Below, one piece after another: positions 5,650-8,600 of a stretch of DNA of 64,000 nt. Below the pieces are notes generated by a model. That model was not told where the DNA came from. It was given only the letters and a program-made list of their open reading frames with translations, and did not search any database. The position numbers and the translations under genes are program-made. Source of the DNA: Dictyostelium discoideum. Taxonomy: Eukaryota. The first letter of the stretch is position 1; every line of letters starts with the position of its first letter. The stretch covers positions 832,001-896,000 of the forward strand of contig CM000153.2 of the NCBI GenBank assembly GCA_000004695.1. Reading direction: 5' to 3'.

Positions 5650-8600
5650 TTATAATTTATAATATGAACGTTTTGTAACACGACCATCAGAACCACAAGA
5701 GAATAAACCATTATTTTCTAATCTAACTTGCATTACACCATAGGTTGAAACTGGAGATTTGAAAACACCTGTTGGACGAACAAAAGTTTGTTTTTTATGA
5801 GCATCTTCAAAGGTATTGAGACAAGTCATCGATGGTAAGGACCAAATCTTAATGTTACCATCACTACTACCAGAGCAAACAAACTCTTCGAATGGATCCA
5901 ATGCCAATGATTTAGTATTTAAATGATGAGCTTTGAAACTTTCCAATTGTTTATGAGTACGAATATCGTAGAGTGACAATGAACCTTTCTTACCACCAAC
6001 GATGATAGTTTGACGTTTTGGAGAATAAACAATTGAGGATGCGCCATTCTCTTGATCGGTGTAAGAGGCAATCAATGATTTATTAGGTGGCAATAATACA
6101 TCCCATAGACAGATATCACGAGATTTGCTATCACTACTACTGATACCGGCAGTTGCCAATAAACTTCCAGAATTTAAAAATGTGAAATCCAAACATTGCT
6201 TAGAATGAGCTTGAAGTGAATAGAATGGTTTCAAGGTATCTTCTTGAGCTGCGAATTGCCACAACAAGATATTACCCGCCATATCGCATGCACCAAATTT
6301 AGTGCCACTTTGATTGAATTTACATCTAACGATTCTTGGTTTTTGAGGGAGTTGATAGGCAGTCAATACCTCTGGTATACCAAATTGCCATAAACAAACC
6401 GAACCATCGATACCACCCGATAAATAGAATGAAGAGTTTGGATGACTTTCTAAACATTGTACAATTATATTATGATCCATTTGTCTACTTGATCTTAAAC
6501 CACTGAATACCGTACTAATCTTACCTTTGGAGATGTTTAAAGATGAAACTGATTTACCAGTGATACGTGGTCTTTTATTATCTCTACTTGAAGATGGTGA
6601 ACTAATTAAATTCTCTGATGGATCTATATCATGTTCTTCCCTAATTTCACTAACCAATTGTTTATGATCAATCTCTCTAATACCACGAGTGGTTGCAATT
6701 GCCATAACATTTAATTCTGGTGAAGTTGGATCCAAACAAAATGATTGTAATAAATCACTATCCTTATAAATTTCAATCTCTTCTTCAAATTTAATTTTAC
6801 CACTACCACCACCAAATTGAACTTGGCTACCAACTTTTTTCAATGGCATTGGTTCATTATTTTTATTTACCTTACTATTATTATTATTGTTATTACCACC
6901 ATTAATATCTACTGGTAAAGTAATTTCAATACCAAGTATAATATGATCTAATAATTCTTTTTGATTTGTAATTAAAATTTTCCAAATTTGATATTGATCA
7001 GTTGAATTAAATTCTTTATAAGATTTTAAAAGTTCTAAAAAGTTTTCAATTGTTGTTTTAGTTGTATTATTGGTGAATTGATCTAAAATCTTTTGTGGAA
7101 CATGTAAAAGTTTTGATTGTGATGAACCAATCCAAAGTGATAAACGTTGATTCACTGAATCGAATACTTGATGGTATGGCAATGCCTTTACTAATTGATC
7201 GAAGCATTGTTTAAAATATTTCAATGAAAGGAAATCAAAGAATCTTTTTAAGAATTTATATATTAATTTCTTTTCATCATTAATTCTCTTTAATTCTTCT
7301 TTATCTAATATTTCATTTGGATCGTCATCTTCATCATCCATATCAAAATCATCATCATCATCATTATTATTATCACCAGCACCAATTAATTCATTATTTT
7401 CAGTATCTTTATAAGATCTAATTGGTAATTGTTTAATTTGATCAATGAATTGATTAAATTGTTGGATAGTATTCTTATTTTTGAATAATACTAATAACAC
7501 ATCGAAACGTTGTGAACCATAACCTAATAAAAATAACATCATATAAACTGTTGATAAAATCAATGAATGACTATGATAACGTTTATCAATAGACATAATT
7601 GATTGATAAATCTCTAATGAAACTGTTAATAATGGTTGTGATGCTGATGAATTCATTAACATTAAAATATTATCATCATCAAATCTTAATAATGATTTAA
7701 TTATTGAAATTGAAATTAATTCTAATATATCCATTGCTTTTTCATCACCATCTTCATTATTATTACTATTATTATTATTATTATTATTATATTTAGTTAA
7801 TTGAATTACTTGATAAACATATTGTCTATTTGAACAATATTCAATTAATGATTTAACAATTTCTTTTGGAATTAACTTGATTCTTTTTACATAAATATTC
7901 TAATGATTCTTTAAAATCTTTAAATTCCTCATCCCAATTATCAGCTTCTCTAGTTTCCATAATGGTTTCAAGTAAAACTTTAACAACCAATTTATCTTTT
8001 AATTCATTATCAATCAATGAATATAATGAAAGTTTTTCTTTTTTACTTGGTATGAATGTTGCTGCTTACAATGATGCTTCTGCATGCTGATAATGCTGCT
8101 TTATCTTCTCTATCTTTATTTGATTTTTCTTCTTCAATCTCTTTAATTGATTCTTCTTTTGGATTTATTACTATCTAACAACTCCCACCTATTATTATTA
8201 TTATTATTGGTGGTGGTTGATGATGGTGCACCAAAGTCTAAACCATAATTATTTGAAGATGATGATTGACTTGGTGTATTGAAATCTAATCCCATATAAT
8301 TTGATGATGAATTTTCTGGTTTTGATGGTGTACTACCAAAGTCTAAACCATAATTATTTGAATTTGATGATGATGATTGAGTTGGTGTATTGAAATCTAG
8401 TCCCATATAAGATGAAGAAGTCGATGGTTTTGATGGTGTACTACCAAAATCTAATCCTAAATCATTTGAATTTGATTGAGTTGGTGTATTGAAATCTAGT
8501 CCCATATAAGATGATGAAGTTGGTTTTGATGGTGCACTACCAAAATCTAAACCTAAATCATTTGAAGGTTTACTAAAGAAACCACTACTACTACCGCCTC

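Follow-up and report, generated by a model that had tools for sequence, protein, structure and literature searches.

The interrupted DmX-like/Rav1 gene of the Dictyostelium discoideum AX4 reference is very probably one ordinary gene crossed by a local patch of consensus errors

In the AX4 reference assembly of Dictyostelium discoideum, a gene of the DmX-like/rabconnectin-3 type seems to change its reading frame three times between two large open reading frames (ORFs), and the question is whether the gene is disrupted, split, or misread. The window analyzed here is a stretch of 64,000 nucleotides (GCA_000004695.1, contig CM000153.2, positions 832,001 to 896,000), and all coordinates refer to it. 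ORFs of the window were found by exact look-up to be identical to crlD (XP_639029.1), DDB_G0283629, and rasS. The upstream of the two ORFs (8143..11943, minus strand) encodes 1266 aa and ends with RWELLDSNKSKRRIN and a stop codon, while the downstream ORF (5650..7734, minus strand) encodes 694 aa and begins with MDILELIS. Both ends, KSKRRIN with its stop and MDILELIS, were re-read in the sequence as the earlier note had given them. That note had left three explanations side by side: homopolymer-length errors in the assembly, a disrupted allele, and two separate genes. Judged from the comparison with other genomes, the frame breaks are very probably a local consensus-error patch of the AX4 reference, and the locus is one ordinary gene with a last exon of 2115 codons.

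The whole gene is placed at 5650..14384 on the minus strand by its Pfam domains and by colinearity with orthologues. It starts at 14384 and contains two canonical introns. Its exons in the window are 14384..12337, 12222..12084, and 12000..5650, with boundaries read from the sequence and colinear with D. purpureum. Intron 1 (12223..12336, minus strand) is 114 nt long with the ends GTAATG...AG and a GC content of about 0.09, and intron 2 (12001..12083, minus strand) is 83 nt long with the ends GTAAGT...AG and a GC content of 0.096; both are genuine. Pfam detects the Rav1p_C domain (PF12234) at residues 390-1035 of the 1266-aa ORF with the E-value 1.3e-99, and WD40 repeats in two further ORFs, the N-terminal one (12333..14384) and the C-terminal one (5650..7734). 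The DmX-like/rabconnectin-3 alpha/yeast Rav1 family belongs to the RAVE complex, a V-ATPase assembly factor, and a Rav1p_C domain lying between WD40 propellers is the likeness that the Dictyostelium gene shares with this family. The identity proposed earlier, DmX-like/rabconnectin-3/Rav1, is thus well founded, and the D. discoideum gene is an ordinary, intact member of the family. It is colinear with the D. purpureum protein XP_003287338.1, with 73% overall identity. The literature on Dictyostelium DMXL, rabconnectin, or Rav1 yielded no paper on the D. discoideum gene.

The frame changes were located with a codon log-likelihood scan whose training set was the long window ORFs. Along the minus strand, the best frame steps by +1 at about 8170, 8065, and 7895, in agreement with the three switches described before, and the three intermediate segments quoted for them were matched exactly by three-frame translation. 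The two large ORFs are in the same frame, and the best frame returns to the original one after the three steps. The DNA between the ORFs is coding-like in composition, as had been stated: its GC content is 0.23-0.26 (0.23 for the 408-nt spacer from ORF to ORF) against 0.09 in the two real introns of the gene. The longest A/T run in the spacer is 6, and the flanking intergenic DNA contains A/T runs of 29. Further apparent breaks in the window, at 38387, 47300, 52785, and 60028, turned out to be ordinary A+T-rich introns.

Orthologues were found with the downstream frame as the query of an exhaustive HMMER search. They are D. purpureum XP_003287338.1 (2654 aa), Heterostelium album XP_020432208.1 (2980 aa), a Synstelium polycarpum protein (2188 aa), and a further dictyostelid protein (2674 aa) on four transcript-like contigs. 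The alignment of the translated segments with dictyostelid orthologues, which the earlier note had recommended, gave a uniform answer: all four proteins are continuous across the junction and homologous to the three segments in order. In the genomic DNA of D. purpureum, the last exon stays open in one frame through 1983 codons. When one base is removed at each switch, the last exon of the window becomes an ORF of 2115 codons that is colinear with it. The spacer translation is 50-70% identical to D. purpureum, the repaired frame-1 segment being 70% identical with no gap, and the downstream 749 codons are intact, with 89% identity in the WD40 part. Since the orthologues are continuous and the repaired last exon is colinear with that of D. 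purpureum, the ancestral state is one ORF. Other searches added no sequences. The repaired junction was used in two word-index protein searches, of which one had no hits and the other gave a single Logan fragment (P0001, 32% identity); dictyostelid proteins did not come up in either. Among solved structures the junction sequence had no match, and independent D. discoideum DNA was not found when JGI metagenome contigs were scanned by exact pattern and by protein. Exact look-ups of an upstream-only model of 2014 aa and of the window ORFs of the gene returned no record.

With rasS (17934..18518) as an anchor and 10-kb flanks, the locus was retrieved from seven other Dictyostelium assemblies. Each of the seven has one DMXL gene, with a product of 2839-2952 aa, which speaks against both the disrupted allele and the two-gene split among the three explanations listed above. 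The closest is a newer D. discoideum assembly, GCA_054883475.1 (CM142510.1, loci L010 and L013), with 99.4-99.5% identity to the window. In the 8.7-kb gene, the coding differences between the two are position 9716 alone and 12 positions in 8188..7876; that is, 12 of 13 coding differences from a near-identical genome fall in 313 nt. Over the locus 14906..5138, the remaining differences are lengths of poly-A/T tracts outside the coding sequence, plus the substitutions at 14453 and 14451, which adjoin a poly-A/T tract of differing length. Beyond the gene, the window further departs from GCA_054883475.1 in the lengths of intergenic poly-A/T tracts, in a second patch described below, and in a few isolated substitutions. 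The 313-nt stretch (7876..8188, minus strand) is designated here as the patch, and it holds nine substitutions and three surplus window bases relative to GCA_054883475.1. Three more distant loci, L008, L011, and L012 (93-95% identical), side with the newer assembly at all covered patch positions except 8188 in L012, where the position adjoins an alignment gap; among these three, only L008 and L011 extend over the third insertion site (7876). Strictly, what the comparison establishes at the sequence level is that, among D. discoideum genomes, the odd one out is the window. Because the newer assembly and six other Dictyostelium assemblies show one uninterrupted gene, the frame breaks very probably result from about 310 bases of bad base calls.

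The three surplus bases lie on the minus strand in non-repetitive contexts. The first +1 break is the T at 8163 (AAA-T-CCAAAAG), which is absent from L008, L010/L013, L011, and L012. After its removal the reading is SWDFLDSNKPKEESIKE, and D. purpureum has AAACCAAAAGAAGAA. The true second break is the G at 8083 (GCAT-G-CAG), absent from the same loci, and its removal gives the reading AALSASEASLKAPTFIPSKKEK. The third break is the G at 7876 (AATCAA-G-TTAATT), absent from L008, L011, and L013; its removal gives CKKNQLIPKEIVK, where D. purpureum has CKKNNLVEKEIVK. The TAA that closes the 1266-aa ORF (8143..8145, minus strand) is a false stop, out of frame in the true sequence.

The nine substitutions, given as minus-strand bases of the window and of the newer assembly, are 8188 G/T, 8182 G/T, 8179 G/C, 8110 G/A, 8069 G/A, 8068 T/A, 8062 G/C, 7995 A/C, and 7927 G/A. 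The three errors in 8179..8188 (8188, 8182, and 8179) turn SWDFLD into RWELLD, and D. purpureum has WDFLD. At 8110, a G for an A gives KDR in the window and KDK after correction; at 7995, an A for a C gives LKDK, corrected to LKAK; and at 7927, a G for an A gives DEEF, corrected to DEKF, with DEK in D. purpureum. The remaining three errors (8069, 8068, and 8062, in 8062..8069) bear on where the second switch seems to lie. The first two produce a spurious TAA (8068..8066) in the true frame, and this stop shifts the apparent place of the switch, while the true insertion, G 8083, lies upstream of it. The second switch at its apparent place (8046-8068) is therefore an artefact. The surplus bases were also sought by scoring every single-base deletion against the orthologues, a method of weak resolution. 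The scoring correctly favoured T 8163 and the interval 7876-7880, and it missed the second site because the substitution errors had made the false stop. An imperfect 22-nt duplication at about 8103-8060, noticed by eye, had been considered as the cause of the second switch and was discarded.

The earlier note had attributed two of the breaks to A-homopolymer runs. Deleting one A from either run does make the stops disappear. The runs themselves are located elsewhere than was written: GTAAAAAG occupies 7884-7888 rather than 7868-7872, and CCAAAAG lies at 8157-8160 rather than at about 8118. All three bases in excess (T 8163, G 8083, and G 7876) are outside both runs. The A4 runs (8157-8160 and 7864-7867) and the A5 run (7884-7888) have the same length in the other assemblies and, by nucleotide alignment, in D. 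purpureum. Thus, errors of the assembly are what the other assemblies show, as the note had allowed, and it is only the homopolymer-length cause that falls away, with the runs unchanged and a T and two Gs in excess.

Application of the 12 patch corrections to the window gives a protein of 2844 aa without an internal stop and a last exon of 2115 codons. When the change at 9716 (I to R) is added, the product matches KAM9943330.1 (ACTFIT_006728, 2844 aa) of GCA_054883475.1 exactly. Apart from these positions, that gene differs from the window gene in having no frame breaks, its last exon in L013 being one open frame of 2115 codons. The corrected residues are also closer to D. purpureum, as seen in WDFLD, DEK, the R at 9716, and the residues that follow removal of the last surplus G. 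At 9716 (minus strand), which lies inside the Rav1p_C domain, the window has T (STLINVV) and GCA_054883475.1 has G (STLRNVV, as in D. purpureum); this difference is probably another error of the reference.

The proposed course of events is simple. About 310 nt (8188..7876) would carry nine wrong and three inserted bases, and each of the insertions T 8163, G 8083, and G 7876 would advance the frame by one; for this reason the ORF would seem broken three times and then be back in its original frame. The affected window base is G on the coding strand at 9 of the 13 positions. This excess of G, together with the clustering, suggests that a single noisy read may stand behind the consensus here. The patch is not the only weak place in the window. 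In intergenic DNA at 22234..22417, 11 substitutions relative to GCA_054883475.1 were found in about 180 nt, and at 8 of the 11 the window stands alone against L010, L008, L011, and L012. Low-quality stretches thus occur locally in this assembly. A run of 100 N at 34692..34791 marks an assembly gap of unknown length. Resequenced AX4-derived lines share 1916 differences from the reference, which were attributed to reference errors or clone differences (PMC3466296).

The same 12 changes could in principle be real. The sequenced AX4 clone would then truly carry them as a clustered mutational event, or mutation shower, and its DMXL would be truncated after Rav1p_C at RRIN. The comparison assemblies may come from other strains, and private mutations do occur in axenic laboratory strains. 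With a real cluster, the only DMXL/Rav1 made by the standard laboratory strain would be one cut short at its C terminus, without the WD40 tail. Against this stand the density of the changes, 12 in 313 nt with one in the remaining 8.4 kb or so of the gene, and the three independent frameshifts with a net frame of zero. The intactness and conservation of the 749-codon downstream frame, the similar second patch in intergenic DNA, and a bias to spurious Gs that resembles base-calling noise speak in the same direction. A true lesion of AX4 is accordingly considered improbable, although it is the best placed of the alternatives to a consensus-error patch. The view of the gene as a decaying pseudogene was rejected on the same intact downstream codons and on the confinement of all lesions to 313 nt.

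The locus has been annotated in AX4 in a way that bears on the question of introns. The record XP_001733008.1 (EDR41063.1, UniProt B0G145), a protein of 2792 aa in the same 90% cluster as KAM9943330.1, was reproduced exactly from the window with the exons 14384..12337, 12222..12084, 12000..8172, 8061..7858, and 7808..5650. It contains two pseudo-introns in addition to the genuine ones, so that this annotation already has a single gene at the locus. The first (8062..8171, minus strand) is 110 nt long with the ends GTAATA..GCAG and a GC content of 0.30, and it bypasses the first two breaks. The second (7809..7857, minus strand) is 49 nt long with the ends GTTAAA..CAAG and a GC content of 0.20, and it bypasses the third. 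Contrary to what had been stated, there are donor/acceptor pairs of 60 nt or more that formally fit: the annotation itself combines a 110-nt GT..AG span (8171..8062) with a 49-nt one (7857..7809). Single GT..AG spans of 297-309 nt also join both ORFs in frame. None of these GT..AG candidates resembles a real intron. Enumeration of GT..AG solutions gave no 3n+1 span for the apparent second switch, and the candidates for the other two switches, like the spans of 297-309 nt, have GC contents of 0.23-0.36 and would remove conserved residues.

Should the two annotated spans be real short introns, splicing would give XP_001733008.1 exactly, and both spans do have GT..AG ends. Their GC contents of 0.30 and 0.20 stand against 0.09 in the gene's own introns, and one of them measures only 49 nt. 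Once corrected, both are in-frame coding sequence homologous to residues of the D. purpureum protein, and GCA_054883475.1 is annotated without them. Real splicing at these places is hardly credible. Under the consensus-error explanation, the reference annotators would have kept one gene by means of two artificial introns, at the cost of 52 residues. B0G145, named 'WD-40 repeat-containing protein', represents the same locus as the window gene and differs from the corrected protein in lacking these 52 residues and in carrying wrong ones (RWELLD, KDK, DEEF, and NQVNSKRN); these faults arise because the two pseudo-introns were placed to get round the consensus errors. The locus resembles a known class of cases, in which reference consensus errors are handled by 'frameshift introns': indels and substitutions are clustered in a region of draft quality, and the annotation compensates with non-canonical short introns. 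Within this class the locus is unremarkable, and its errors are not homopolymer-length errors.

Equally hard to sustain is a split locus, with a Rav1-like gene that ends at RRIN and a separate WD40 gene that begins at MDILELIS. Yeast Rav1 is not known to have the C-terminal WD40 block, and the downstream ORF does open with an ATG. The 408-nt spacer is nevertheless coding-like, lacks the long poly-A/T tracts found in the intergenic DNA on either side of the gene, and has a translation recognizably similar to D. purpureum. The C-terminal WD40 block and Rav1p_C form a single polypeptide of the DMXL type in the corrected sequence, in all other assemblies, and in the four orthologues.

Least probable of all, to the point of being negligible, are three programmed +1 ribosomal frameshifts or another form of recoding, for which it can be said that all three shifts are +1 and that the 10-mer TCCAAAAGAA occurs in two of the three apparent switch windows (three copies on the minus strand in 64 kb), and against which it counts that the surplus bases are missing from every D. 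discoideum-group assembly covering each site and from the orthologues, D. purpureum being continuous, and that the 10-mer does not coincide with the surplus bases, G 7876 being 6 nt upstream of it. The copies at the switch windows lie at 8163..8154 and 7870..7861 on the minus strand, and the first includes the erroneous T. Because this copy reads AAACCAAAAGAA in the true sequence, the sharing is a coincidence, and TCCAAAAGAA was dropped as a shared shift signal once the real surplus bases were known.

Because this DMXL/Rav1 orthologue is ordinary and intact, the breaks have no biological importance, and the practical value of the correction is modest. The widely used AX4 model B0G145/XP_001733008.1 misses the 52 residues, and about a dozen others are wrong in its linker ahead of the C-terminal domain. 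For Dictyostelium DMXL constructs, knock-ins, peptides, and structure predictions, the 2844-aa KAM9943330.1 is preferable to the 2792-aa AX4 model. More widely, coding-like frame breaks in the AX4 reference can stem from patches that mix substitutions and indels, beyond homopolymer miscounts.

Several observations were made beside the main comparison. Tract lengths between the window and GCA_054883475.1 differ at 5513..5524, 14384..14682, 17746..19324, 20880..22031, and 27951..28362. These intergenic tracts are mostly poly-A/T, and the window is longer in all of them but one; homopolymer compression in GCA_054883475.1, real tract instability, or over-calling in the window could account for this. 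On the plus strand, an eIF3b-like neighbour occupies 15464..17687 with the exons 15464..15503, 15620..15815, and 15911..17687. Its product of 670 aa has an RRM and an eIF2A-type propeller, and a 670-aa product is found at the equivalent place in other assemblies.

The dictyostelid proteins differ from the DmX-like/Rav1 family in the stretch from Rav1p_C to the C-terminal region, where they carry a GLDF[G/N] repeat array. In the window, nine units ([DY][LM]GLDFG and YMGLDFNTP) were recognized at about 8208..8690 on the minus strand, residues 1086-1245 or so of the 1266-aa ORF, with linkers rich in Ser, Gly, and Thr between them. Similar arrays with other copy numbers are present in the D. purpureum, Heterostelium, Synstelium, and P0152 orthologues. 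Loci L006, L007, and L009 (GCA_054859145.1, GCA_054859325.1, and GCA_054859235.1) share only 80-93% identity with the window across the locus and presumably represent other Dictyostelium species. Their DMXL products have 2856, 2844, and 2901 aa, respectively, and the length differences lie at least partly in the GLDFG repeat and linker region, where the alignment to the window breaks down. The GLDF[G/N] unit may be a short linear binding motif.
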